Below, piece after piece: positions 3,299 to 15,726 of a DNA stretch of 15,726 bases (position 1 is its first letter; each line of letters starts with the position of its first letter). Source of the DNA: a virus; IMG/VR virus record IMGVR_UViG_3300045988_107423; one strand, given 5' to 3'. The translations under genes were made by a program, and so were the position numbers. The notes beneath the pieces were generated by a model. That model made no database searches, was not told where the DNA came from, and saw nothing but the letters and a program-made list of their open reading frames with translations.

Positions 3299-4915
3299 TT
3301 AGTTATTTGATAGACCGTAGTTCCCTATATCATCAGTATGCCACAAAGTCACTCCGTTGTCGAATATATTTCGCAATTTCTTTAACTGGTCTAAATCAAT
3401 GTCACCCGTAAAACCGCAATGTGAGGTTTTTACATAATTCCAATACGCTCTTGAACGTAAATAAGGTGTTGTGATTTTGTTGATTGGATATCCAAATTGC
3501 TCGAAAAAACTATCTGCCATTTCTGCAAATTGTCTTTTGCATGACATTTCATAGAAATCAACACCACACTCTTTGATTCCTGTCAACACGTTTTCTGACA
3601 ATGCTTTTCCATGCGTCACTCCTGCATTTCTCGCTCTGTCTGTTTGATTTGCTAACATTCCAAGAGCGTCCCAAAAAGCGTTTGTTGTTTTACCTAGTCC
3701 GTTAAGACCTCCTTGTAAGCTTCCTCCTGCTAATCCTGCTATCGCTGTTCCTGTTCCTATGGTAGCGTCGACAGCTGTGTGAACTTGAGATAAGGCTATA
3801 GAGCTTTTGTTCTGTGCTAACCATGCCCGATAAGTGTCAGAGGAAAAGGAACACATCGGAAATGAAGAGTTAATAAGAGCTTCATTCATCAAACCGTGTT
3901 CTAAAGCTTCTCTTGTTTTATAATTTTTAGGAGCTGTTAGAACTTGTGGAAGTGTTGCGATTGTTCCGTAGCTGTCGAACTCAATAGAGTTATCGCGATT
4001 ATAGCTGTACTCGTATCTATAAATATGTGTATTTCCCTGATTGTTGTCAGCTAGACAGAATAACCACGGATAAGAATACAACTTTTTGTTTTTTGGTTTA
4101 TAACCCTCAAAAGCATTGTCAGAAATTTGCATACTTGTAATTTTAGGCTTTATTTCTTTCCCTCCTAAAGCAAGTGTACATAATTTAGGGGACATAAACA
4201 GACCGATAACTGCATCTTGTGCGCCTTGGTTGTTGTAATCTTCCAATAATGTGTTGATTCCTTTCAGACCATCTTCTGTGGTCACATCATAATGTCCAAT
4301 ACTGCCCCAGCAATATACACCATTTTCCACACGTCCCTCGAACCAACTTTGTTCCGTTGACCCTCTTGTGACAAAAGCACAACAATCTGTCGGTGTTAAA
4401 TCCAATTTTTTATGTCGTGAAACAATCGTTTCACCTGTCTCTAAATTTACAGGAATTAAATTTGCTCCGATAGAGTCAGCACTTCGTGGTATATGATGAT
4501 ATTCTACAAAGCAAGGCTTGATATTTGCACTATAAAAATTATTTTGAAAAACATCAAGCGAAAAGTTGATTCTAGTTGTTTTTTCTGATAGCCATTCGAT
4601 GGAGTCAATAAAGCAAAAAACCCATTCACTTGAAAGACCTGTGTTTTGAAATGCTAAATAATTTAACTCTAAACATTCCATTTCGGTATAAGGAATTTTT
4701 ACATCCAAATTTCCTACACGAATAGGCGCTAAATGCGATAAATCAACCCCATTAAAGTTGACTCTCCATTTTTCAAGGTGTTCTAGCAAGTCTGCTTTTG
4801 AGTTGTATAGTCTGACATGCTCGTATTCGTCAGACCATGGTACACCACTATACAATCTTAATTTTGTTTCGGGGTTGCGTGGTGCAACCCCTCCTTGAAC
4901 TGGTAAATTTATCAT
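3299..4915 (-). CDS. Tail knob / distal tail tube protein (gp9-like, 538 aa)
   Basis: ATG 4915 overlaps the upstream stop (ATGA), with GGGAGG at 4927-4932. The C-terminus FFEQFGYPINKITTPYLRSRAYWNYVKTSHCGFTGDIDLDQLKKLRNIFDNGVTLWHTDDIGNY closely parallels the recalled phi29 gp9 C-terminus ([64 protein letters not shown]). A Gly/Ala-rich hydrophobic loop (TGTAIAGLAGGSLQGGLNGLG) sits where gp9 has its membrane-active loop. Confidence 0.9.
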   Translation of the reverse strand: MINLPVQGGVAPRNPETKLRLYSGVPWSDEYEHVRLYNSKADLLEHLEKWRVNFNGVDLSHLAPIRVGNLDVKIPYTEMECLELNYLAFQNTGLSSEWVFCFIDSIEWLSEKTTRINFSLDVFQNNFYSANIKPCFVEYHHIPRSADSIGANLIPVNLETGETIVSRHKKLDLTPTDCCAFVTRGSTEQSWFEGRVENGVYCWGSIGHYDVTTEDGLKGINTLLEDYNNQGAQDAVIGLFMSPKLCTLALGGKEIKPKITSMQISDNAFEGYKPKNKKLYSYPWLFCLADNNQGNTHIYRYEYSYNRDNSIEFDSYGTIATLPQVLTAPKNYKTREALEHGLMNEALINSSFPMCSFSSDTYRAWLAQNKSSIALSQVHTAVDATIGTGTAIAGLAGGSLQGGLNGLGKTTNAFWDALGMLANQTDRARNAGVTHGKALSENVLTGIKECGVDFYEMSCKRQFAEMADSFFEQFGYPINKITTPYLRSRAYWNYVKTSHCGFTGDIDLDQLKKLRNIFDNGVTLWHTDDIGNYGLSNN

Positions 4916-5256
4916 GCAATTATGACCTCCCTATCGTGGATAGTTATTAATTCTTTACCATTTATTAGCTTAATAAGTATTTTAGTTTTAATAGTTTGTT
5001 TCTTATCACAAGGTTTAAATAATACACCATTTAAACGGTTATCTAAATAGTAATATGATGTATCTCTATCCCAACGTAAATTTGAGCCGTCATTGTTGTA
5101 TATATCGGTAAAGTACAAATCTTTAATTAAATCGTTTGGGATAAACACTTTTGTATTATTATCAATTCCAATCTTATTCTTATTATATTTATTTGATATT
5201 AATGTAATAGATGTAACATAGTCATAATAATCTATAGATTTAATGCTATTAATCAC
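4912..5256 (-). CDS. Hypothetical protein (114 aa), Asn/Lys/Ile-rich, in the head-fibre (gp8.5) position
   Basis: The ORF exactly fills the gap between the capsid and knob genes. Its GTG start overlaps the capsid stop (GTGA) and its stop overlaps the knob ATG (ATGA). There is no SD and no ATG codon in the frame. The region is visibly more AT-rich than its neighbours. Confidence 0.5.
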   Translation of the reverse strand: MINSIKSIDYYDYVTSITLISNKYNKNKIGIDNNTKVFIPNDLIKDLYFTDIYNNDGSNLRWDRDTSYYYLDNRLNGVLFKPCDKKQTIKTKILIKLINGKELITIHDREVIIA

Positions 5257-6524
5257 ATCTGTTTGGTAAAATTTACAGTTTTTGTGATAGTCTCGTCTGG
5301 TCTGTAAATTGCTTTTAAGACAATCGTTCCCGTCTCGTCCGCTCCTGTGTGAAGTAAATGTGTCCCCGGGATAACGTAAGTCTTTGCTGAGGTTGCACCG
5401 CTGTCAACTTCAAGAGTCACCAAATTCTGATGATATGTGCCTGCACCACCTGTCACAGTTACTTCTACTTCCTGTGTCTGCCCTGCTGTGTAAGTTCCTG
5501 CATTGACGCCTAAAGTTGGTTTTTCAACGACAGCATCCGTTGTAAATACACGAATCGGGTAGAACGGGCTCGCGCTCACCATTTCCACCTGTGTATAGAA
5601 ATAATTCCATGATAACACATTTGCCAATCTCTGGTCAGTCATTTCTTTGAACTGGTCGCGCACATTGAAGAATCGCACGTCGCAAAGAACACCCTGTATT
5701 GCACTATTCGCGAATTTATCTACAATCACTGTCTGAACTGCTACGTCTGCCTTATCCATATGGAACGCATACGCTAAAGCATCAACACTAATCTGTGCAT
5801 TGACTTCCGGTGTTGTTATCCAAATTAGATTTGACGGCATTGCATGAGAAGTTGCTCCGGCTGGATTGTTTTCCGGCAATGGGAAGCCAAACTCTCCAAC
5901 TGCTCTTTTGACCTCAATCAATAACTTTTTCGCTGATGCTTCATCTACAATCGCGTCAACAGTCACTGCCGGAAGCACCTCTTTTTCATACCCGACATTA
6001 ATCAAATCACGCATAGCAAGGTATTCGTCCCAGTTCGCTCCTGTGATAGCGCTCTCCATTTTTGCCATAATCATGTCGCGGATTCCATACTCGCTTGTGA
6101 ATGCTTTTCTCAAGTTGTCATAAGTCACTGTGACAGGGTACTGGATTTCAAGATTTACATTATGAAATACGCTCATAATATAGGACTGGTATTGCTGAAA
6201 AGCAAATTTAAAATCTGCCTGTGAATCATAGACACGTCCTTTACACATATTCACGTATGTTTCCTCGTGTGTTTCACCGTAGCGCATCGGCTCTTTCTTG
6301 AATCGTGCTAACGGGTTTCTCCACGCGATACTATCTACCGTCTGCATACCGATACGGTTAATCAATGACGGTACAATTTCATTTCTGACAGGTGCATAAT
6401 TTAAAATGTTGTCATACACTGCCTGTAAATTGTCTGATACCTCTGTTGGTAAATGATTCTGAACCTCAAAAGAAAGTTCCTGTGTAACCGCTTTTAATAT
6501 ATTCGCGTTTGTTGCTTCTGCCAT
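5253..6524 (-). CDS. Major capsid protein (gp8-like, 423 aa) with C-terminal Ig-like (BIG2-type) domain
   Basis: ATG 6524 has a GGAGG RBS (6532-6536). SLINRIGMQTVDSIAWRNPLARFKKEPMRYGETHEETY parallels the recalled phi29 gp8 [38 protein letters not shown]. The C-terminal roughly 85 aa (TLGVNAGTYTAGQTQEVEVTVTGG...) look like a surface Ig-like domain. Confidence 0.9.
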   Translation of the reverse strand: MAEATNANILKAVTQELSFEVQNHLPTEVSDNLQAVYDNILNYAPVRNEIVPSLINRIGMQTVDSIAWRNPLARFKKEPMRYGETHEETYVNMCKGRVYDSQADFKFAFQQYQSYIMSVFHNVNLEIQYPVTVTYDNLRKAFTSEYGIRDMIMAKMESAITGANWDEYLAMRDLINVGYEKEVLPAVTVDAIVDEASAKKLLIEVKRAVGEFGFPLPENNPAGATSHAMPSNLIWITTPEVNAQISVDALAYAFHMDKADVAVQTVIVDKFANSAIQGVLCDVRFFNVRDQFKEMTDQRLANVLSWNYFYTQVEMVSASPFYPIRVFTTDAVVEKPTLGVNAGTYTAGQTQEVEVTVTGGAGTYHQNLVTLEVDSGATSAKTYVIPGTHLLHTGADETGTIVLKAIYRPDETITKTVNFTKQM

Positions 6525-6536
6525 TTTTATACCTCC

Positions 6537-6818
6537 TTATTCTGTCTTACCGTCAAAGTCTAAATCTTCAACGGTGATTTTTTCTTCTTTTTCATCTTTC
6601 TTTTCTTCTCTGTCTGTGTTAGTAGCTGACTCTTTCATGCGGTCTTTAAAGCGTTTTTTGTACTCAGCTTCGAGTTTGATATATTTATCTTTCCATTCGC
6701 TGTCGGCTTCACCGCTTCTTTCTTCGGCGAATGTCTGTAGAACTTCAATCGCGTCTCCATGTTCTTCCACGTCAGCGACCGCGTCAATTAATTCGTTTAA
6801 AGCTTCATTAAAATCCAT
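6537..6818 (-). CDS. Scaffolding protein (gp7-like, 93 aa, acidic and helical)
   Basis: ATG 6818 has an AAAGGAGGA RBS. It is a small, highly charged Glu/Asp/Lys-rich helical protein immediately upstream of the capsid gene. The call rests on position and composition. Confidence 0.6.
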   Translation of the reverse strand: MDFNEALNELIDAVADVEEHGDAIEVLQTFAEERSGEADSEWKDKYIKLEAEYKKRFKDRMKESATNTDREEKKDEKEEKITVEDLDFDGKTE

Positions 6819-6860
6819 GTAAATATCCTCCTTTTTATTTATTACCCTTTTACAGTTTTA

Positions 6861-6889
6861 ATTATATCACCACGGAAAGAAAAAGTAAA
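6861..6889 (-). promoter_or_regulatory. Candidate sigma-A-type promoter for the scaffold-capsid-tail operon
   Basis: On the minus strand: TTTACT (6884-6889), 17-bp spacer, TGaTATAAT (-10 at 6861-6866). The TGA of the extended -10 is the stop codon of the upstream tail-lysin gene (6867-6869). Confidence 0.55.
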
Positions 6890-7874
6890 GAGGCATTTTT
6901 TTCTTTTTTCCATGTGGGTGTACTGGGTATGGCGATAATGTCTGTAAATACGCATACCATTTTAACGCGTTCTTTTTTCTTTCCTCTTCTTTTTCAACTC
7001 CTGCACGCTCAAAATTTTTTAAAAATACAGACGCGAGATAATTGGGTTCTTTTGTGGACTTTCGAAACTCTTCCCATGATATCGGATATTTCGCTGTCTC
7101 AATCCACTGTCCACTACGTACTGTTTCTTCATCAAGCCAAACACATTGGTAGTAACCGTCTGTAATATCATACCCGTGAGCGTTCGCCCAATCTGTATAG
7201 ACTGTAGCTGGTGTCCACTGTACAAGACCATAGCCACCATTATAGTTCCCCTCTTTTAAGGACTGCCATAATTCAGGGTTGATATTAGATTCTATCTCCA
7301 TATTCCCCAACATTCCTGCAATGGCGTTCAAAGTGAAATCTTTGAAAAACATGGTACTATAGAAAACATAAGCATTGTTTTTCATCTCATCTTCTGTAAG
7401 ATAACGGTTTCCATGAATCCATTCAAGGGGCATTCCTGCACTGTCGCCATAACGATATATCTTTGTCCATGCGGACGGTTTGGAAACATATGTATTAATG
7501 CTGACCTGCTCGGGTAATGGATAACGCCCACTGTGCGCTCCCATAGTGACACCGCCACCCCCAACACCGTTCCCACTATACACCATTTCTGTATGACCAC
7601 TACGCCATACAATGTCCCCTGCCTGCCAAGCCTCATTGATACTAATCTCTTTAAATCCTGCCTGTAATAGATATCCCTCCTCTGTTCTTGTGGTGAACCA
7701 TGGATTCACTGAAAAGAACCCACCTTCTGTAAGTGCTTTTGAAATAAAAGAGCTACAGTCATAATAAGTAATACCGTTCACGGTCTGCCCTCTTCGGTAT
7801 TGCTGAGAATATCCAATATTAGGGGCATTGCACGCATTGACCGCCCACTGATAGGCTACATTAATATTTGGCAT
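6867..7874 (-). CDS. Tail-associated peptidoglycan hydrolase (335 aa): N-terminal NlpC/P60- or CHAP-like cysteine peptidase plus C-terminal phage tail lysozyme-like domain (functional analogue of phi29 gp13)
   Basis: ATG 7874 has an AAGGAGGG RBS. YDCSSFISKAL ... GDIVWRSGHTEMV is a Cys...His papain-like peptidase signature. GMLGNMEIESNINPE...GGYGLVQWTP resembles the phage tail lysozyme family motif. Confidence 0.65.
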   Translation of the reverse strand: MPNINVAYQWAVNACNAPNIGYSQQYRRGQTVNGITYYDCSSFISKALTEGGFFSVNPWFTTRTEEGYLLQAGFKEISINEAWQAGDIVWRSGHTEMVYSGNGVGGGGVTMGAHSGRYPLPEQVSINTYVSKPSAWTKIYRYGDSAGMPLEWIHGNRYLTEDEMKNNAYVFYSTMFFKDFTLNAIAGMLGNMEIESNINPELWQSLKEGNYNGGYGLVQWTPATVYTDWANAHGYDITDGYYQCVWLDEETVRSGQWIETAKYPISWEEFRKSTKEPNYLASVFLKNFERAGVEKEEERKKNALKWYAYLQTLSPYPVHPHGKKKKMPLYFFFPW

Positions 7875-7890
7875 TTACTACCCTCCTTAA

Positions 7891-7910
7891 AATGTTTCAC
7901 GTGAAACATT
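7891..7910. promoter_or_regulatory. parS: Perfect parS-consensus palindrome, copy A (AATGTTTCACGTGAAACATT)
   Basis: The inner 16 bp, TGTTTCACGTGAAACA (7893-7908), match TGTTNCACGTGAAACA exactly. The palindrome extends to 24 bp (7889-7912). It lies 2 nt upstream of the tail-lysin RBS on the minus strand. Confidence 0.75.
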
Positions 7911-7911
7911 T

Positions 7912-7927
7912 TGTTCCACGTGAATAA
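7912..7927. promoter_or_regulatory. Degenerate parS-like site A' (TGTTCCACGTGAATAA, 14/16)
   Basis: It abuts copy A, 19 bp centre to centre, between the endolysin stop and the tail-lysin start. Confidence 0.45.
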
Positions 7928-7930
7928 AAA

Positions 7931-8920
7931 TTAAACCATATATAACATATCTTTCGCGTAAACGAATTCAGTTCCACAAGCACGTGCCAGTCCTCCGCCA
8001 AATGTTCCGGGACATTCAACACCGTTCGGGTCTTTTCCCTGTAATAAACATAAGATTTCAAGAGCTGTGACAAGATACTGTGTTTCACCGCGTTTCACAT
8101 AATGCTTACCCGCTTTTTTTCTTGTCTTTTTACCAACTAATCCGTCCTCACCAATGAATGGTTTGCCGTAATCAGCATTCATTGCTCTCTGCACTACACG
8201 AACCGCCATTCTTTTAGTGTTTATTCCAACAATACCGTCAACAGCGATTTGAACGCCCGTAAAATTAATTGCGTGCTGTTGCCCTAAAGCAATCAATTCA
8301 TTTCTTGGGTTTGAGTGACTAGTAGACGGAGGTGGTGTAGTAGGTGTAGCACTTGAAGCTCCATAGTCTTTGTAAACGTGGTTCACATCACATCTTCCAT
8401 TAATACCATCAACAGACCCGTTACTGGTATACTGCCAAATGTCAACATTGTCTACGCCTAACACATTCGAGTATCTAGCTATCCACAAATCATATCCCCA
8501 TGTTTCACCGATATAACTCTCAAACCATGATTTACTAGCGTAGATTCCTGCTTTATATCCATGTGTTAGCATTGCATCACAAAAGCGCTTTGCGTTGTGC
8601 TTTGCTACTCTTTGTGTCCCTTTTTCTTCGCTGTCAAAAAAGACAGGTAGATTAGGTGTGTGTCCTTGTAACAATCTAAGACAATGATTGATTTCACCCT
8701 CGATTCTAGCTGTGGTTTTTGCGTAGGAATAAAAATATACTCCATATGGAATACCCAACCGTTCACATTCACTGACGTTTCGACTCCATTGTTTATCGTC
8801 TTGCGATGCCATGTCTTGCCCGTATCCGCATCGAATAATTACATAATCGACAGCGTTTTTTAATCTCTCAAAATCAATGACACCGTTATGATATGAGATA
8901 TCTACAGCCTTTTTACTCAT
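7931..8920 (-). CDS. Endolysin: GH25 muramidase domain, Pro/Thr/Ser linker and C-terminal peptidoglycan-binding (PG_binding_1-like) repeats (329 aa)
   Basis: ATG 8920 has an AAGGAGG RBS and overlaps the holin stop (ATGAGTAA). AVDISYHNGVIDFERLK...YVIIRCGYG...GIPYGVYFYSY...DIWQYTSNGSVDGI is a GH25 pattern. The linker is ATPTTPPPSTS. DGIVGINTKRMAVRVVQ and DGLVGKKT are PG-binding motifs. Confidence 0.85.
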   Translation of the reverse strand: MSKKAVDISYHNGVIDFERLKNAVDYVIIRCGYGQDMASQDDKQWSRNVSECERLGIPYGVYFYSYAKTTARIEGEINHCLRLLQGHTPNLPVFFDSEEKGTQRVAKHNAKRFCDAMLTHGYKAGIYASKSWFESYIGETWGYDLWIARYSNVLGVDNVDIWQYTSNGSVDGINGRCDVNHVYKDYGASSATPTTPPPSTSHSNPRNELIALGQQHAINFTGVQIAVDGIVGINTKRMAVRVVQRAMNADYGKPFIGEDGLVGKKTRKKAGKHYVKRGETQYLVTALEILCLLQGKDPNGVECPGTFGGGLARACGTEFVYAKDMLYMV

Positions 8921-9149
8921 GTTTCATGTCCTCCTTACTATCAAAAATATCACAGATACGTTGTAGTGCTAACGTATTATTATTTAGCGCATTTGTAATA
9001 TCTGTCATTTCTTCCTTGTGTTCTTCCGTCATCTTTTCAATTTTTTGGTCATTTTTATCCTCCCTGTACTTGACATACCACATGGACGCACACGCAACCA
9101 CGGTCGGAAGTCCTAAACTATTAATTAATGTGATAACTTCATTTGCCAT
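8913..9149 (-). CDS. Holin, BhlA/UviB-like (78 aa, one N-terminal TM helix and a charged coiled C-terminus)
   Basis: ATG 9149 has an AAAGGAGGTG RBS. The TM segment is VITLINSLGLPTVVACASMWYV, followed by KYREDKNDQK... It lies immediately upstream of the endolysin and is translationally coupled to it. Confidence 0.65.
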   Translation of the reverse strand: MANEVITLINSLGLPTVVACASMWYVKYREDKNDQKIEKMTEEHKEEMTDITNALNNNTLALQRICDIFDSKEDMKHE

Positions 9150-9169
9150 GATATCACCTCCTTTTTTCT

Positions 9170-9198
9170 ATCATAACACAAAAGGACTTATTTGTAAA
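9170..9198 (-). promoter_or_regulatory. Candidate sigma-A-type promoter for the holin, endolysin and tail-lysin genes
   Basis: On the minus strand: TTTACA (9193-9198), 17-bp spacer, TGtTATGAT (-10 at 9170-9175). The predicted start is only about 2 nt before the holin SD, which lowers confidence. Confidence 0.4.
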
Positions 9199-9202
9199 TA
9201 AA

Positions 9203-9222
9203 AATGTTTCACGTGAAACATT
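9203..9222. promoter_or_regulatory. parS: Perfect parS-consensus palindrome, copy B
   Basis: AATGTTTCACGTGAAACATT, with the 16-bp core at 9205-9220. It ends 4 nt upstream of the TTTACA -35 at 9193-9198. Confidence 0.75.
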
Positions 9223-9236
9223 GTCCACGTGAAACA
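9221..9236. promoter_or_regulatory. Degenerate parS-like site B' (TTGTCCACGTGAAACA, 14/16)
   Basis: It overlaps the end of copy B, 16 bp centre to centre. One arm, GTGAAACATTTT, is perfect. Confidence 0.45.
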
Positions 9237-9242
9237 TTTTGT

Positions 9243-9352
9243 GTACGTAACAAAATAATCGAATCAAAGGGAACGCAAAACCAAAAATTGATATCAGACT
9301 GCTTGTCTATGTGCGTGTATATCAATTACAATGTTCGTATTATTTTGGGTAC
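9243..9352 (-). ncRNA. Candidate packaging RNA (pRNA-like) or other structured small RNA; the transcript may extend to about 9197
   Basis: There is no ORF. A strong promoter (9359-9387) predicts +1 at about G9352. The 5' GUAC..AAAAUAAU.CG (9352-9336) pairs with CG.AUUAUUUU..GUAC (9261-9243). A perfect 9-bp helix pairs 9319-9327 with 9286-9294. A distal 5-bp helix pairs 9305-9309 with 9295-9299 (one G-U pair). A 9-nt bulge ACACGCACA occupies 9310-9318. Its ACGCA (9312-9316) is complementary to UGCGU (9273-9277). Confidence 0.4.
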
Positions 9353-9358
9353 GATATT

Positions 9359-9387
9359 ATGATATCATATATTATTTAAAATGTCAA
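9359..9387 (-). promoter_or_regulatory. Strong sigma-A-type promoter facing the non-coding gap
   Basis: On the minus strand: TTGACA (9382-9387), 17-bp spacer, TGaTATCAT (-10 at 9359-9364). This is the closest match to consensus in the window. The -35 overlaps the last 2 bp of parS copy C. Confidence 0.65.
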
Positions 9388-9405
9388 TGTTTCACGTGAA
9401 ACATT
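9386..9405. promoter_or_regulatory. parS: Perfect parS-consensus palindrome, copy C
   Basis: AATGTTTCACGTGAAACATT, with the 16-bp core at 9388-9403. It overlaps the ATPase stop codon (9404-9406) on one side and the TTGACA -35 on the other. Confidence 0.75.
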
Positions 9406-10450
9406 AAAAAGATATGACATCAAATATCATGTTCTTACATTCCAAATTTTCAAACAAAAGTAAACCTCTGTTAAAGTATTCCCGTAACATCGTAACGATA
9501 TAATGGGTCGAGTTGACACGAATAGCAGTATTGTCTATAACATCGGTTTTTGTAAAACATATTCGTGTAGGCAAAATATCATCTGCACCTGTTGACACGT
9601 ATAGACACACATCGTATTTTCTTACATTATATAGATTATCATTGTACTTAATTGTACAAATATAACGTGACTGCCCACTTGGTTTACCAATCAGACATTC
9701 ATTGTCATTTAGATATTTATTCTCGCTCGCATACTCATTATAGTCAGCACCCCGAAAAGCTCTTGCAATAGCGCTTTCCTTATACGCTGTTGAAGCGCTT
9801 TCATTATAAGTTCGCTCAAATACCCAACCGTCTCCTCGTAAAAATTTGGTATCTCTCTTTAACATTTTATTGATACCAAACACGCTATAGTAAGGGTTTA
9901 ACAAAGAGACTGTATTCGATGCCATATATAGCATAACTCTCCTATGCTGTTTACCATGTCCCGAACTGATAGTTGTAAGCAACGACAGTAATTTATTTAC
10001 CTCGTTTGGTAAATATATATTATCTTCGTCTTGATATTCATCAAAAAATACAGAACGGATATTGACGAATAACCCACGCATTTTTTTATACTTTCTTGCG
10101 ACAGATAACGATAGGCAATATCCACACGGCTCTTCATTTAGAAATAATTGAACAAGTGAGCCGTTCATTAAACTCTTTTCAGTCATGACATACCCGTCAA
10201 ATTTTTCAGATATATCGCCAAAATATGTATCGGCACAATTCTTCATATCAACTACATTTCTATATAAATAGATAAATTGGTTTTCTGGTCTGTATTTATC
10301 CTTTAAAAAGTCAGATACTTGTCTACACTTGATAGAATAACTTTTCCCTGCCGTTCTATTGCCATCAACTATATAAATATCGGGGATATTCCCGTTTTTA
10401 TCCTTTAAAGTTAGTAATCTATCACAATGATAATAGCCATCATTTTTCAT
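9404..10450 (-). CDS. DNA encapsidation (packaging) ATPase, gp16-like (348 aa)
   Basis: ATG 10450 has an AGGGGGGTG RBS. Walker A is GNRTAGKSY and Walker B is VFFDEY. NQFIYLYRN, YLPNEVNKLLSLLTTI and ASNTVSLLNPYY parallel the recalled phi29 gp16 EQFIYVRRY, YIPNEVSALLNLMDTV and LSNAVSVVNPYF. Confidence 0.9.
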   Translation of the reverse strand: MKNDGYYHCDRLLTLKDKNGNIPDIYIVDGNRTAGKSYSIKCRQVSDFLKDKYRPENQFIYLYRNVVDMKNCADTYFGDISEKFDGYVMTEKSLMNGSLVQLFLNEEPCGYCLSLSVARKYKKMRGLFVNIRSVFFDEYQDEDNIYLPNEVNKLLSLLTTISSGHGKQHRRVMLYMASNTVSLLNPYYSVFGINKMLKRDTKFLRGDGWVFERTYNESASTAYKESAIARAFRGADYNEYASENKYLNDNECLIGKPSGQSRYICTIKYNDNLYNVRKYDVCLYVSTGADDILPTRICFTKTDVIDNTAIRVNSTHYIVTMLREYFNRGLLLFENLECKNMIFDVISF

Positions 10451-10464
10451 TTTAACACCCCCCT

Positions 10465-10484
10465 AATGTTTCACGTGAAACATT
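10465..10484. promoter_or_regulatory. parS: Perfect parS-consensus palindrome, copy D
   Basis: AATGTTTCACGTGAAACATT, with the 16-bp core at 10467-10482. It lies between the terminator (10491-10522) and the ATPase RBS (10455-10463). Confidence 0.75.
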
Positions 10485-10490
10485 TTTTAT

Positions 10491-10522
10491 TTAAAAAAGA
10501 GGGGGTAGCATATTGCCACCCC
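10491..10522 (-). terminator. Intrinsic terminator closing the early (replication) operon
   Basis: In minus-strand RNA, GGGGUGGCA-AUA-UGCUACCCC forms a 9-bp stem with one mismatch (10502-10510 with 10514-10522). CUCUUUUUUAA follows. Confidence 0.65.
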
Positions 10523-10564
10523 ATTAATAAGAAGAGAAATAGAACTGTTTCTCACGTCGTTATA

Positions 10565-10915
10565 TTATAAATTTGACACATCCAAGGTACAATTTATATA
10601 ATCGCGCCCTGCTTTTGTCTTTCCGCTAATTTTAATAATAGAAAATTTTTCACCGTCCATCACGCTTTCAATGTCTTTCAAAGACTGCCTAAATGTTGCA
10701 GACTGTCCAGAATATACTTTCTTATCGGGTGTGATAATGCTCACAATCTCCTGTATATCTCCATTATCTTTAATATCATTAAAGATAATATAACCGTCTA
10801 CAGGAATAGACTCGCCATCTTCAATATTTTTTAATGGTTCAATGTCGGGTGCTGTGGTCATAAGATATTTTTCCACCTTTGTGAACTCTCTACTCATTTC
10901 CTTAATTTCTACCAT
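10565..10915 (-). CDS. Putative ssDNA-binding protein, phi29 p5-like (116 aa)
   Basis: ATG 10915 has an AGGAGGAA RBS. LKNIEDGESI...EIVSIITPDKKVYSGQSATFRQSLKDI...GKTKAGRDYINCTL has the same residue spacing as the recalled phi29 p5 (KNLPDGTII...ETVTTIFAADGSLYSAISKTVAEAASDL...GTSSKGNVFFSLQL). Size and position next to a p6-like gene also fit. Confidence 0.5.
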   Translation of the reverse strand: MVEIKEMSREFTKVEKYLMTTAPDIEPLKNIEDGESIPVDGYIIFNDIKDNGDIQEIVSIITPDKKVYSGQSATFRQSLKDIESVMDGEKFSIIKISGKTKAGRDYINCTLDVSNL

Positions 10916-10940
10916 GTTAATTTCCTCCTATTTTTTCCTT

Positions 10941-11240
10941 TTAATCTTCCTTTTTCATTTCCTGCAACTCTGCTTCAGTAACAATTTTTTCACTCTTAAC
11001 ATCTGAGTTGAGTAAGAACTGCTCATCAGTCATAACACGTTTTTCCAGTTTAAATTTAATATCTAAAATGCAAACAATGTCACCTTTGTACTGCTTTTCA
11101 ATCAAGATTTCTGCTTTTTCTCTTGTCTTACAATTTGCTAGTTTTTCGTCAAAGCAATCTTTCTTGATTTCTCCCGTCTCCTTGTCTTTGTAGATTCTTT
11201 CAACGGATACCTCCGCTGTTACTAATGTCCTTGTAAACAT
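10941..11240 (-). CDS. Putative dsDNA-binding (histone-like) protein, phi29 p6-like (99 aa, acidic C-terminal tail)
   Basis: The likely start is ATG 11240, preceded by AAAGGAGGAA (11246-11255). The upstream TTG extension to 11327 in the ORF track runs through a promoter-like region. EKQYKGDIVCILDI and TDEQFLLNS parallel the recalled p6 KRKYKGEPVQVVSV and PVEKFLEVA. Confidence 0.4.
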   Translation of the reverse strand: MFTRTLVTAEVSVERIYKDKETGEIKKDCFDEKLANCKTREKAEILIEKQYKGDIVCILDIKFKLEKRVMTDEQFLLNSDVKSEKIVTEAELQEMKKED

Positions 11241-11312
11241 CTTTTTTCCTCCTTTTTTCTGCTTTCTTTGAGTGTGAATTGCAATGTAATATGTTTTATT
11301 TATTACACTATT

Positions 11313-11341
11313 ATAATAACATAACAACTAAATATAGTCAA
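11313..11341 (-). promoter_or_regulatory. Candidate sigma-A-type promoter for the p6-like and p5-like gene pair
   Basis: On the minus strand: TTGACT (11336-11341), 17-bp spacer, TATTAT (11313-11318), which is part of TATTATAAT. It sits in the 104-bp gap after the polymerase stop. Confidence 0.5.
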
Positions 11342-11344
11342 GTA

Positions 11345-13234
11345 TTATATCATAATTTTTTTATCTTTTTGTTTGTGTATATTGAAATCTTTATTTCTTA
11401 ATACAATACCACCTTTTACTCGTTCCGCTTTTAAGTTACATGATTTCATCTCAAGTCCCTGTGAAAGTTCTGATATGTCTCTACCCTCTTCGACAAATTT
11501 TCTTTTAGCTTGACTACTCATGCCACATGCTTTTATATCTAGATAGGGTTTCTTAACGGGTTCTCTATCTTTTTCAATAATATGCTCAGCATACGTTTTT
11601 TGCCTTTCATAATAGGCAAAATCAAAAGTCGCCTCGCAACCCCAACAACAAAAATCTGTAGGATGTTCAACTACCATTTTCGCATCTTCCAATCCTAATA
11701 AATGAATAGAATCAGTGTCAGCATAACAAAATCTATCATAATTTGCTATAGCGTGGCGTATTGTAAAGTTCATAGCATATGAAGTAATAGCACTACCAAT
11801 AGGGATATACCCTACTTTCTTTTCATGCTCCTCATGTAAGATAAAACTGATAATACCGTCCTTACTAAGATATGGCTCTTTATATGAGGAGTTATCCGAC
11901 ATAGCAAATTTACCGTAAAGATTATTTAAAAAGAGTTTCGCTTTTTGTCTTTTAAAACCTTTTGAAGTTCTTTTTTCTTCACCATACTTATCTATGTATT
12001 CATCAAAAAAACCTGTACTTGCATAAAACCACACATAATCATATACAGCTAAATCATATATTTCATACGTTTCATTAAATAATTCCCAATCAGTACAAGT
12101 CATGGTTAGCGTAACATTAGTATCATGCATTTGACCGTCAATATCACGATAATATCTATAGTATTCACCTTTATATCTAACATCAGATGTATATAAATTT
12201 TCGTTTGCTTTATACAAGGCACTATGTCTAATGTGAACCCAAGGAAAAAATCCTGCTTTTAATCGAAAACGGCAATTGAATCGTATAAAAAAGTATTTAT
12301 TAGTAGAACTAATAAGTTCTTCTGGCGGTGTACCTCTGTGATATTCACCGTGACCGAATGGATATATATTTCCAGAAACACTATGCATCATAGATGGATA
12401 TAGAGAATTTACATCATATACCAACCCTGCACCAACGGGCATATGCGCGTACCTCGGATTGACATAGCACCACCCTCCGTGATAGGAATTATGAATATAA
12501 TCCCACTGATTCCATGTTCCTGTAATAGATTTATCGAGATAATCATCTCGAATATCAGGAAATAACTTCTCATATTGTTTACCGTCATAAAATCCTTTAA
12601 ATTCTGATAAACAACATGAACCAATAGTCAATTTATCGTGTTTTTCATTAAACATCATTTCAAGAGCCTCTTTTAACACTAACACATCATTTTCAATATA
12701 CTTTTTCTCATTATCTGATATATCACAATAGGCATATCTTTCACCCTCATATTTCATCTCTAATTTTTGATGTTTTGTTTTAAAAGATTCTCCTATATCT
12801 TTCAATGATGAGGGCATAAGCTTCAAAGAGTTCCGAATCTCCAAAAAAGTCTTATTCCATTTTAATTTTAACCAATACCACGCTCCCATATCAGAGATGC
12901 AAGTCTGAAACTCTTTTGACCTCATTTCTTTATCTTTACAGTGAACCCATTGCCAACCCTCTTTTAATAGAAAGTCAACTATAAAAGAACCGTCAAAAGC
13001 TAGGTTATGAAAGTACAATATATTATTTCCTTTCATTGTTAGAAATCTATTTAAAAAATCTCTTATAGAGTGTGTTATTGTTACGGTTTCGGATTCATCA
13101 TATAAAGCCACGTCAGCACCCGACCAGACCTCTGCACTGTCTTGTTTTTTACCTTTTTCCCGTTCTACCTTTTCACCCCAAACAGTTGTTTCAAAATCGC
13201 ACGCCCAAAAAGTAATATTCTTTTCACGTGGCAT
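11345..13234 (-). CDS. Protein-primed family B DNA polymerase (629 aa)
   Basis: The likely start is ATG 13234 (MPREKNITFWACDFETT; phi29 has MPRKMYSCDFETT) after AAGGTGGTGA. The ORF track's GTG at 13246 falls within that RBS. Motifs: ExoI DFETT, ExoII HNLAFDGSFIV, ExoIII YIENDVLVL, motif A DVNSLYPSMM, motif B KLFLNNLYGKF, motif C YADTDSIH, and QKTY...IKACGMS near the C-terminus. Confidence 0.95.
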   Translation of the reverse strand: MPREKNITFWACDFETTVWGEKVEREKGKKQDSAEVWSGADVALYDESETVTITHSIRDFLNRFLTMKGNNILYFHNLAFDGSFIVDFLLKEGWQWVHCKDKEMRSKEFQTCISDMGAWYWLKLKWNKTFLEIRNSLKLMPSSLKDIGESFKTKHQKLEMKYEGERYAYCDISDNEKKYIENDVLVLKEALEMMFNEKHDKLTIGSCCLSEFKGFYDGKQYEKLFPDIRDDYLDKSITGTWNQWDYIHNSYHGGWCYVNPRYAHMPVGAGLVYDVNSLYPSMMHSVSGNIYPFGHGEYHRGTPPEELISSTNKYFFIRFNCRFRLKAGFFPWVHIRHSALYKANENLYTSDVRYKGEYYRYYRDIDGQMHDTNVTLTMTCTDWELFNETYEIYDLAVYDYVWFYASTGFFDEYIDKYGEEKRTSKGFKRQKAKLFLNNLYGKFAMSDNSSYKEPYLSKDGIISFILHEEHEKKVGYIPIGSAITSYAMNFTIRHAIANYDRFCYADTDSIHLLGLEDAKMVVEHPTDFCCWGCEATFDFAYYERQKTYAEHIIEKDREPVKKPYLDIKACGMSSQAKRKFVEEGRDISELSQGLEMKSCNLKAERVKGGIVLRNKDFNIHKQKDKKIMI

Positions 13235-13251
13235 TACACTCACCACCTTTT

Positions 13252-13959
13252 TTATTCTTCTTCAATAACAATATCTTGCTCTTGTAAAAATTCTTGAAAA
13301 TCTTCTGTGGTATTAAGAACACCCATTCTACGTAAAATATTCCAAAAGACAGCATCAACCGTGGCTTTATCCATGTACGGTTCTGTTGGAAATGCTTCGG
13401 GCTCTTTAGAATATGTATACGCAAATAACGCTCTTTCTTTATCTGATGCATTATATAATAAAGCGTCTGTTTTTTCACGTAAATAATCAGCTGTTTTTGG
13501 TGCGAAACTTTCTAAAGAATCATACCACGAATCAATAATAGCTTCATAATCTAATACAGGTGTTGCTATATTTACCCTAATACCTCTCTTTTGTAAGGCT
13601 TTTAATTCCTTTAATCCATATTCATGGATTCTTGCGTACTCCTGTTGTTGTGGTGTTAATTTTATGAAAACTCTATTAATTTCAAGAGCGTGTTTACGTC
13701 CGTACTCTTTAGAACTTATTAACTCACCTGTAATCATATTTACAACAGATGCTTTATCACGTATTTCTTTAGCTCTCTGTTTTTTCAGTCTTTCAATAGA
13801 CGCTTGAGTAGGTTTTTTCACTCGCTTAATTCTATCTACCTGTACACCTTGTTTTTGCTGATTTCTAACACGTGCTAAATACTTATTATATTCTTTATTG
13901 TATTGCTGTTGCAAAATAGAGGCTTTTACGCGTTTCTTTTTTATTTTCTTATTTGACAT
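13252..13959 (-). CDS. Putative terminal protein (235 aa)
   Basis: It lies immediately upstream of the polymerase, as phi29 gene 3 does. Size is similar to the 266-aa phi29 protein. The N-terminal third is strongly basic (KKIKKKRVK...RNQQKQ...KKQRAKE) and the C-terminus is acidic. The genome ends in ITRs. The priming residue was not identified. Confidence 0.6.
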   Translation of the reverse strand: MSNKKIKKKRVKASILQQQYNKEYNKYLARVRNQQKQGVQVDRIKRVKKPTQASIERLKKQRAKEIRDKASVVNMITGELISSKEYGRKHALEINRVFIKLTPQQQEYARIHEYGLKELKALQKRGIRVNIATPVLDYEAIIDSWYDSLESFAPKTADYLREKTDALLYNASDKERALFAYTYSKEPEAFPTEPYMDKATVDAVFWNILRRMGVLNTTEDFQEFLQEQDIVIEEE

Positions 13960-13961
13960 GC

Positions 13962-14156
13962 TTAACTATCCTCTTTTTCAACTTTTCTTAATAATAAACC
14001 ATGTGGAACACGAGTATATTCAATATAATCTCCTGCATGAATGTCTAAATCTTTTACTGCTTCTTTCGGGAGCATGACACGGGCGGTATAACCGCCTGTG
14101 CCACCTTTTGTAAACATTACTTTATAGCGCAATAATTGATTTGTTAATTTTGCCAT
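13962..14156 (-). CDS. AbrB/MazE/SpoVT-type (swapped-hairpin) DNA-binding protein (64 aa), a candidate phage transcription regulator
   Basis: ATG 14156 has an AAGGAGGAA RBS. GGYTARVMLPKEAVKDLDIHAGDYIEYTRVPHGLLLRKV fits the SpoVT-AbrB pattern (x-V-x-[IL]-P-K-x(5)-L-x(4)-G-D-x-[IL/V]-E...L-x-K). Confidence 0.6.
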   Translation of the reverse strand: MAKLTNQLLRYKVMFTKGGTGGYTARVMLPKEAVKDLDIHAGDYIEYTRVPHGLLLRKVEKEDS

Positions 14157-14167
14157 AATTTTCCTCC

Positions 14168-14632
14168 TTATAAAATATTAAATACTTTCCATGTGAAATC
14201 TGAAAAGTGCTCTGCTATGAATGATACAGAAGATAAGAAAAGATATAGTAAAAATGTTGCCATAATTATAACTGATAAGATTCCCAAAAAAGATGATATT
14301 TTTTCTAATTTGGTAAATGACTCTTTTTCTTCTGTAGTTGTATGCCTTGCTATCCATTCTGTAGGAGTTTCATGCAATGTTTCACGTGAAACATTATCTG
14401 AATCGATTTTATGATTTTGAAATGTCTCTATATAGTCTTTATTTCCCTTAGTATCAATGGTATAGGCTTCTCCATCAAAACCCACATAAATGTTTTTATT
14501 AGTATACAAATTTTCTACCCAGTAGGGTTCGTCTACAAATAAGGCTATGTAGTTGTTTAGTGAGTTTTCAGTGTGAAAGTCGTGTATTTCTACACCAAAA
14601 TCTGTGATATTATGTAATCTGTATTTAATCAT
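14168..14632 (-). CDS. Early membrane protein, C-terminally anchored (154 aa)
   Basis: ATG 14632 overlaps the upstream stop (ATGATTAA). There is a single hydrophobic helix near the C-terminus (ISSFLGILSVIIMATFLLYLFLSSVSFIA). The gene contains parS copy E. Function is unknown; a role in membrane localisation of replication, like phi29 p1 or p16.7, is speculation. Confidence 0.5.
   Translation of the reverse strand: MIKYRLHNITDFGVEIHDFHTENSLNNYIALFVDEPYWVENLYTNKNIYVGFDGEAYTIDTKGNKDYIETFQNHKIDSDNVSRETLHETPTEWIARHTTTEEKESFTKLEKISSFLGILSVIIMATFLLYLFLSSVSFIAEHFSDFTWKVFNIL
14376..14395. promoter_or_regulatory. parS: Perfect parS-consensus palindrome, copy E (intragenic)
   Basis: AATGTTTCACGTGAAACATT, with the 16-bp core at 14378-14393. 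It lies inside the membrane-protein CDS and encodes N-V-S-R-E-T-L. Confidence 0.7.
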
Positions 14633-15065: not shown

Positions 15066-15365
15066 TTAACATAAATCATCTATACTATTATTAACAAACT
15101 CTAATTTCTCACATACAAATTTCTTACAATATAATCTACCATCACTTGTTACAATAAAAATATCACTAATATGTGTAGACGCATCTTCGATAAAATATAC
15201 AATCACGTCAAATAATTTATCGTCTAATGATAATGTTGTGTGCAATGTCTCATTTGCTTTATCTTTTAAATAATCAATAAAACCATCAACAGTGCTAGAC
15301 TTCATAATATCACAAAGTTCCTTACCAAAGCTATCCCATATTTTTTCGTCATATTTAATCTTCAT
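15066..15365 (-). CDS. Hypothetical early protein (99 aa, acidic)
   Basis: ATG 15365 has an AAAGGAGGAA RBS (15372-15381). No motif was recognised. Confidence 0.7.
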   Translation of the reverse strand: MKIKYDEKIWDSFGKELCDIMKSSTVDGFIDYLKDKANETLHTTLSLDDKLFDVIVYFIEDASTHISDIFIVTSDGRLYCKKFVCEKLEFVNNSIDDLC

Positions 15366-15676: not shown

Positions 15677-15726
15677 TTTTTTAATCAAAAGGGGGTCGTG
15701 GTCTCATTGGGAATAACGAAAGCCCT
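15677..15726. repeat. Right inverted terminal repeat (ITR)
   Basis: Exact reverse complement of 1-50. Confidence 0.95.

Follow-up and report, generated by a model that had tools for sequence, protein, structure and literature searches.

Five conserved parS sites of the chromosomal type in a phi29-like phage genome that encodes no ParB

Why would a phage genome that encodes no ParB carry perfect copies of parS, the chromosomal ParB site? The question is raised by IMG/VR record IMGVR_UViG_3300045988_107423, a stretch of 15,726 bp that was analysed whole and is called the window here. The 20-mer AATGTTTCACGTGAAACATT occurs in it as five exact copies, beginning at 7891, 9203, 9386, 10465 and 14376 (S1 to S5), and has no match in any of 200 dinucleotide-preserving shuffles of the genome. 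The inner 16 bp of all five copies are TGTTNCACGTGAAACA, the chromosomal parS consensus, and all five match the optimal form TGTTTCACGTGAAACA exactly. Three further copies differ from parS at two positions; two of these each abut a perfect copy, and the third is a stray. An earlier note on this DNA had reported the five identical 20-mers, their consensus core and the two 14/16 sites beside perfect copies, and all of these are recovered here. The sites of the window are as follows.

7891-7910 (core 7893-7908): S1, perfect parS, between the stop codon of the GH25 lysin gene and the ribosome-binding site of the tail-lysozyme gene
7912-7927: partner of S1, degenerate parS with two mismatches, TTATTCACGTGGAACA in gene orientation
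9203-9222 (core 9205-9220): S2, perfect parS, separated by 5 nt from the -35 box of the holin/lysin promoter that follows it
9221-9236: partner of S2, degenerate parS with two mismatches
9386-9405 (core 9388-9403): S3, perfect parS, beginning immediately 3' of the TAA that ends the packaging ATPase gene
10465-10484 (core 10467-10482): S4, perfect parS, between an intrinsic terminator and the ribosome-binding site of the packaging ATPase gene
14376-14395 (core 14378-14393): S5, perfect parS, inside the early gene 14168-14632, where it encodes N-V-S-R-E-T
2579-2594: weak parS-like sequence with two mismatches and the core CAGGTG, inside the connector gene

The genome in the window is linear, of the phi29-like kind and complete, its first and last 50 bp being exact inverted repeats. 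All 21 genes lie on the minus strand, and coding sequence takes up 94% of the genome, leaving 6.0% non-coding. Searches with Pfam and PHROGs give no ParB or ParA match (ParBc and ParA/CbiA domains) in any of the 21 genes, in agreement with the earlier note. That note had also placed four of the five perfect sites in the roughly 6% of non-coding DNA; this is what we observe, and under uniform placement four or more of five would fall there with P = 6e-5. The flanks of the five copies are unrelated, and the repeat is limited to 20 bp and is not part of a larger segment.

Are these sites kept by selection? We collected 80 relatives from IMG/VR by their ATPase protein and not by parS. Their ATPases are 88-96% identical to that of the window, with one outlier at 60%, and their median nucleotide identity to the window is 83%. 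Perfect sites are present in all 78 relatives of at least 9 kb, at two to six per locus and most often five, and they map to five positions only, the same as those of the window. The perfect form is retained at S1 in 76/80 relatives, at S2 in 74/78, at S3 in 71/79, at S4 in 53/76 and at S5 in 48/59, which amounts to 70-95% per site, whereas neutral change at 83% identity would leave about 5% intact (0.83^16). Across the relatives the 16-bp core is 96-99.6% identical, compared with 71-91% for the flanks, and the spacing from site to promoter is invariant. At S5, third codon positions are 98.6% conserved inside the site versus 66% in its flanks; with its synonymous positions frozen in this way, it is the DNA that is selected and not the protein. 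Purifying selection on the sites is strong and operates at the level of DNA; the earlier note had proposed that they are under selection, and their presence in 78/78 relatives answers its concern that absence of the motif from close relatives would suggest a recent neutral duplication.

The extent of the selected unit is smaller than the repeat within the window. Identity over all 20 bp, as claimed in the earlier note, holds among the window's five copies and fails in the 80 relatives, where positions 19-20 of the 20-mer vary (...ACACC, ...ACATG, ...ACATC). Because these outer two bases are variable, the selected unit is the 16-18-bp parS core, and recognition of 20 bp was rejected on the same ground. 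We also rejected a mobile mini-element or recent neutral duplication as the source of the copies, since their flanks are unrelated and the sites are syntenic and conserved in 78/78 relatives. The weak sequence at 2579-2594 behaves differently: only nine relatives have a site within two mismatches at this position, none of them perfect, and it is probably a chance match or a decayed site. The most divergent relative (contig L200, with the 60% identical ATPase) carries three parS at 26-bp spacing at 5695-5762, one perfect site between two with one mismatch.

Which protein is likely to read the sites? The form TGTTTCACGTGAAACA is the optimal parS of B. subtilis (PMC4333373) and also the consensus in S. 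pneumoniae (PMC4488948), and gut Firmicutes, including Lachnospiraceae and C. innocuum, have ParABS systems and origin-proximal parS clusters with the same consensus (PMC10197239). The phage itself occurs only in metagenomic assemblies, and a whole-window megablast against isolated phages gives no match, relatives there being found only at the protein level. C. symbiosum, Hungatella and C. innocuum are the hosts of its nearest cultured relatives, with 46% identity of the DNA polymerase in the case of C. symbiosum; one Clostridia metagenome-assembled genome includes a near-identical contig, and the lysin resembles those of phages of Lachnospiraceae. Judged from these sequence relationships, the host probably belongs to the gut Clostridia. 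The optimal core, the shared consensus in gut Clostridia and the hosts of the relatives together make host ParB the most parsimonious and likeliest binder. The core of the earlier interpretation, that these sites serve as parS for the ParB of the host, is thus well supported by sequence comparison.

We favour, with moderate confidence, a reading in which host ParB nucleates and spreads on the phage DNA and host machinery partitions this DNA in non-lytic infection, the S2 pair doubling as a terminator. The five perfect sites and the two degenerate partners would be kept by selection because host ParB (Spo0J) binds them. ParB dimers would nucleate at the sites and spread as CTP-dependent clamps over the linear, terminal-protein-capped 15.7-kb genome, and this coating would lend the phage DNA the identity of a chromosomal origin region. 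The host ParA/Soj and SMC machinery could then position and partition it. The payoff would arise when infection is not immediately lytic, through forespore capture in sporulating Clostridia or through carrier-state inheritance by daughter cells. Two of the sites are built into transcription-unit boundaries, and with S2 and S3 abutting -35 boxes ParB might secondarily influence late expression. This chain of steps draws on established ParB biology and on the phi29 precedent. If host ParB does load, phi29-like phages of gut Clostridia that are supposed to be strictly lytic would gain a route to silent inheritance; they could also travel in spores, by which many gut Clostridia are transmitted from person to person, and it would be easier to understand why virulent phages persist in the gut over long periods.

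The precedent is close. According to one account (PMC2731898, citing Meijer et al. 2005), phi29 has five reported Spo0J-bound parS, used for segregation into the prespore and entrapment in the spore. The same account describes Spo0A boxes that silence phi29, and the phage Nf, which has one consensus Spo0A box and yet is trapped in spores, so Spo0A boxes are not strictly required. In the phi29 genome we find four perfect 16-mers, at 10445, 15903, 17243 and 18760, and in B103 two. The earlier note was right about the Spo0J precedent. Its further suggestion that the number and perfection of the window's sites go beyond phi29 does not stand, given four perfect sites in phi29 and six to seven sites within one mismatch in each of the C. 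perfringens podophages phiCP7R (5096-12148) and CPS2 (5788-13635). In these two phages the sites are mostly 25-bp-spaced intergenic pairs, and in CPS2 some of the gaps concerned precede the holin and packaging-ATPase genes.

One detail of placement is shared widely. Site 17243 of phi29 begins immediately 3' of the stop codon of gene 16, which encodes the ATPase, just as S3 does in the window. A parS 0-1 nt after the ATPase stop occurs in at least four phi29-like lineages (phi29 17243, L202 5780, L083 9920, L060 7304), and the arrangement is found in phi29, CS229P2, L083 and the very divergent contig L060. The ATPases of the phages that share it are 27-40% identical to that of the window or undetectable by BLAST. 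In L060, as in the window, a second parS lies 5' of the ATPase gene too. The shared arrangement could reflect ancient retention or convergence.

The window resembles phi29 as a protein-primed podovirus of about 15-19 kb with a Gp16 ATPase and a phi29-type capsid protein, connector and tail knob, and it resembles phi29 and Nf/B103 in carrying several chromosomal-type parS without a phage ParB, their number being similar to that in phi29. It differs from phi29 in that its proteins are only about 27-33% identical and all of its genes lie on one strand. Four of its five sites are intergenic, at promoter and terminator boundaries, as opposed to one of the four perfect sites in phi29, and two of them have degenerate tandem partners. 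The variant in the window is the fully symmetric TGTTTCACGTGAAACA, whereas phi29 carries TGTTTCACGTGGAACA. The window also lacks Spo0A boxes at its promoters, and its phage is uncultured and known from sequence alone.

Other systems are more distant. Lin and Grossman reportedly found in 1998 that, in B. subtilis, host Spo0J and Soj stabilise an otherwise unstable plasmid that carries a chromosomal parS. The likeness lies in an extrachromosomal replicon with the cis site only, relying on host ParA and ParB in trans; that plasmid was engineered, however, whereas the window is the linear genome of a natural lytic-type phage with terminal proteins. The ParABS systems of the plasmid prophages P1, P7 and N15 and of actinobacteriophages likewise rely on centromere-like repeats in phage DNA to segregate an episomal form, but these phages encode their own ParA and ParB with private centromeres, and the window has neither and carries the chromosomal consensus. 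With no parA or parB among its 21 genes, the window does not hold a self-encoded cassette of the P1/N15 type.

The principle of parS sites served by host Spo0J has been known for phi29 since 2005 and is not itself new. What is new here is its extension to a large clade of uncultured phages, probably of gut Clostridia, together with the mostly intergenic placement by promoters and a terminator and the wider spread, which includes C. perfringens phages and one inovirus. The interest lies in this extension, in the integration of the sites at regulatory boundaries and in the apparent breadth of host-centromere borrowing. A 2024 review of phi29-like phages leaves parS, Spo0J and spores unmentioned. 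Our literature search, with most subscription-journal papers outside its reach, found no description of parS in gut phi29-like phages, and a search joining 'host ParB' and 'phage' returned no result.

How far do the sites recur among phi29-like phages? We sampled other clades independently of parS. A perfect site is present in 12/17 members of the CS229P2-like clade and 23/47 of the CH17P1-like clade, and a site within one mismatch in 24/26 of the CI644P6-like clade. At least 120 IMG/VR contigs carry the 20-mer; among the 120 matches listed, 56 are phi29-like by hidden Markov models of the capsid or ATPase. A parS without ParB also offers a simple sequence marker from which to predict the hosts and lifestyles of uncultured phages.

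Several points weigh against partitioning by host ParB as the explanation. What the sequences show is the identity with optimal parS, the lack of a phage ParB, purifying selection, synteny and wide recurrence in phi29-like phages, whereas ParB binding, its spreading and the biological payoff are inferred from them and from precedent; the host assignment, moreover, extends only to the level of Clostridia. Spo0A boxes (TGTCGAA) are not enriched: three occur where chance predicts 1.74, 49 of 200 shuffles do as well, and none of the three (3358, 3973 and 11489) is near a predicted promoter. Four of the five sites lie at transcription-unit boundaries and are able to form RNA hairpins, and some of the selection on them could therefore concern RNA or transcription. 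The association with hosts among isolates speaks for the explanation, a site within one mismatch occurring in 10/12 phages of spore-formers versus 1/8 of non-spore-formers, but the sample is small and uncorrected for phylogeny. The seven site-free phages of non-spore-formers are Cp-1, P68, Eggerthella LE1-1, Bifidobacterium BD811P2, Curtobacterium Thatch, Arthrobacter Anjali and Microbacterium Evcara. Exceptions run in both directions: the B. pumilus phage PumA1 and the C. perfringens phage susfortuna, a relative of phiCP7R and CPS2, have no site, and the phi29-like Glutamicibacter phage Voltaire, of a non-sporulating actinobacterial host, has two perfect tandem sites, at 8742 and 8761. A strict link of parS to spore-forming hosts is contradicted by Voltaire, which points instead to a more general partition or carrier-state benefit. 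The isolate pattern fits spore hitch-hiking and is not proof of it.

The immediate surroundings of the sites bear on the alternatives. The features concerned are these.

9170-9198, minus strand: promoter of the holin and GH25 lysin genes (TTTACA, 17-nt spacer, TATGAT, with TG)
9237-9352, minus strand: putative pRNA, a structured small non-coding RNA some 116 nt long, with S3 on one side and S2 on the other
9359-9387, minus strand: sigma-70-type promoter that would serve the small RNA (TTGACA, 17-nt spacer, TATCAT, extended -10 TG)
9404-10450, minus strand: Gp16-type DNA encapsidation ATPase gene (Pfam PF05894, E = 1.6e-32), with parS on both sides (S4 and S3)
10502-10522, minus strand: strong intrinsic terminator that closes the block of replication genes, just upstream of S4

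S3 overlaps the near-consensus small-RNA promoter, which is about 99% conserved in the relatives, by 2 nt: its final two bases open the TTGACA -35 box. The small RNA is itself highly conserved, and 75 unique sequences show compensatory change at no fewer than five of its base pairs. An Rfam search at E <= 1 gives no hit to pRNA (RF00044) or another family; the RNA may be a divergent pRNA. At its 3' side, S2 pairs with its partner in RNA over 17 bp (-21 kcal/mol, z = -6.8), UUUUUAUUU comes next, and the folding model suggests that the pair probably doubles as the intrinsic terminator of this small pRNA-like RNA. In the relatives both arms of this stem are conserved while the loop varies, and the S2 partner is not conserved outside its pairing arm. 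S1 and its partner, 19 bp apart centre to centre, form a 13-bp RNA hairpin of -16.7 kcal/mol, and this partner is conserved as TTATTCACGTGGAACA in the relatives. The interval between the terminator, S4 and the ribosome-binding site of the ATPase gene contains no promoter.

Could the sites instead be operators or roadblocks, with host ParB occupancy gating the late genes for the packaging ATPase, pRNA, lysis and structural proteins? ParB would then act as a sensor of cell state, or as a copy-number timer in which replication titrates limited ParB and de-represses the late genes. All four intergenic sites do lie at boundaries in the late part of the unidirectional genome: the S3 core ends at the start of the TTGACA of the small-RNA promoter, S2 ends 5 nt before the holin -35 box, S4 stands between the terminator and the ATPase ribosome-binding site, and the promoter spacing does not change among relatives. 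The parS pairs upstream of the holin and ATPase genes in C. perfringens phages point the same way. KorB of RK2 and P1 ParB likewise have ParB-family sites adjoining promoters, as S2 and S3 do, but these repressors are self-encoded and their repression is demonstrated, whereas repression in the window is a possibility only. In S. pneumoniae, spreading of ParB lowers comCDE expression; the same study, however, finds that ParB is not a global regulator and that a constitutive promoter behind parS is unaffected, so that chromosomal ParB usually leaves promoters beside parS largely alone in this Firmicute (PMC4488948). Three of the four perfect phi29 sites lie inside genes, as S5 does here, and the loss of S4 and S5 in 19-30% of relatives suggests redundancy over dedicated operators. 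In a genome that is 94% coding, moreover, the gaps are the cheapest place for a 16-bp palindrome. We regard gating of this kind as unlikely to be what the sites are for.

A second possibility is that hundreds of replicating genomes with 5-7 sites each sequester host ParB off the chromosome, perturbing ParA/Soj, SMC loading and possibly entry into sporulation in favour of lytic growth. In favour of such a sponge, B. subtilis that lacks Spo0J is blocked in sporulation by way of Soj, and the association with spore-formers fits it as well as it fits entrapment. The density of sites in the clade, about three per 10 kb, also stands out against the 1-10 parS per whole chromosome of gut bacteria (PMC10197239). 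The phi29 phenotype is the opposite, with Spo0J helping the phage into spores (PMC2731898), and phages with a single site such as CS229P2 and CH17P1 would be poor sponges. We consider titration of ParB improbable.

The hairpins raise the case that the palindromes are selected only in transcripts, as terminators, stabilisers or processing sites, and that their identity with parS is incidental. The S2 pair with its following U-run, the S1 pair, and the confinement of S2-partner conservation to the pairing arm all suit such a role. The lone 20-mer, however, folds with only -5.9 kcal/mol, and S3, S4 and S5 have no partner. Hairpins would tolerate compensatory change, and yet the exact parS 16-mer is kept in dozens of unrelated lineages; the same 16-mer is found in phi29, whose sites are reported to bind Spo0J (PMC2731898), and an arbitrary 16-bp palindrome would equal the parS consensus with a chance of about 4^-7. 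As the sole explanation, an RNA-level role is very unlikely. Equally hard to credit is that the sites are operators of a phage regulator such as the AbrB/MazE-fold protein encoded at 13962-14156, which co-occurs with them throughout the clade and is present wherever the region is covered, since tblastn detects no AbrB-fold homologue in phi29, CS229P2, CH17P1 or B103, which have the same 16-mer, the annotations of phiCP7R and of an inovirus with parS list no such protein, and AbrB-type proteins are not known to read long perfect palindromes.

The remaining gene content of the window is that of a phi29-like phage. Pfam identifies Phi29_MCP, Phage_connector, phi29_gp9_C (tail knob), DNA_pol_B_2 and Podovirus_Gp16, in addition to a tail lysozyme, the GH25 lysin and a weak match to the phi29 SSB, and PHROGs contributes just one extra assignment, a tail-fibre match. 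The further features are listed here.

1-50: left inverted terminal repeat, 50 bp, with its mate at 15677-15726, which shows the genome to be complete
11345-13246, minus strand: gene for a protein-primed family-B DNA polymerase (Pfam PF03175, E = 1.5e-47)
13962-14156, minus strand: gene for an AbrB/MazE-fold (SpoVT-AbrB) DNA-binding protein of 64 aa (Pfam PF04014, E = 4.8e-6)
14168-14632, minus strand: early gene that hosts S5, for a protein of 154 aa with a C-terminal hydrophobic segment

The AbrB/MazE-fold protein is the sole recognisable candidate for a phage regulator, and its gene is detected in 69/80 relatives. We label 14168-14632 a membrane-protein gene; its product has no family match in Pfam or PHROGs, and the upstream half of the gene is highly variable between relatives. 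Two small genes, 15066-15365 (99 aa) and 4912-5256 (114 aa), are detected in 8/80 and 10/80 relatives respectively and, being this rare, are accessory genes of the clade.

Records outside the phi29-like phages also contain parS. The inovirus bajarodino virus 6 (PQ006135.1; 5.9 kb, from rodent faeces) has six perfect parS, mostly 1-2 nt after stop codons, and its annotation lists no ParB. Two unclassified IMG/VR contigs of about 6.3-6.4 kb, L095 and L004, have seven and five parS sites, and Microviridae records are also among the census matches. These sequences suggest that chronically infecting single-stranded DNA phages may borrow host ParB as well. In INPHARED, 340 phage records have a parS match of about 18-20 bp, counted with or without a ParB of their own. 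They include the Butyrivibrio phages Arian and Bo-Finn, in which parS is annotated as 'promoter', Lactobacillus plantarum myophages, Bacillus phage vB_BcoS-136, 30 C. sporogenes phages and many Microbacterium, Gordonia and Arthrobacter phages.

A broader and more tentative reading, which we think unlikely, is that borrowing of the host centromere is widespread and has evolved repeatedly in small gut and soil phages, and that in the present clade, where the sites may have become part of promoter and terminator boundaries, ParB gates pRNA, packaging and lysis. It would span many phi29-like lineages, inoviruses with 5-7 sites per 6 kb and some microviruses, and ParB occupancy would reflect cell state or phage copy number. 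If true, gating by ParB would let a 'virulent' phage switch from lytic growth to silent inheritance or hitch-hiking in spores, and back.

One further element adjoins the terminator and S4. A plus-strand promoter at 10573-10602 matches the consensus at 12/12 positions (TTGACA, 18-nt spacer, TATAAT). It lies on the non-coding strand and points antisense into the SSB and replication genes, where it might drive an antisense RNA.

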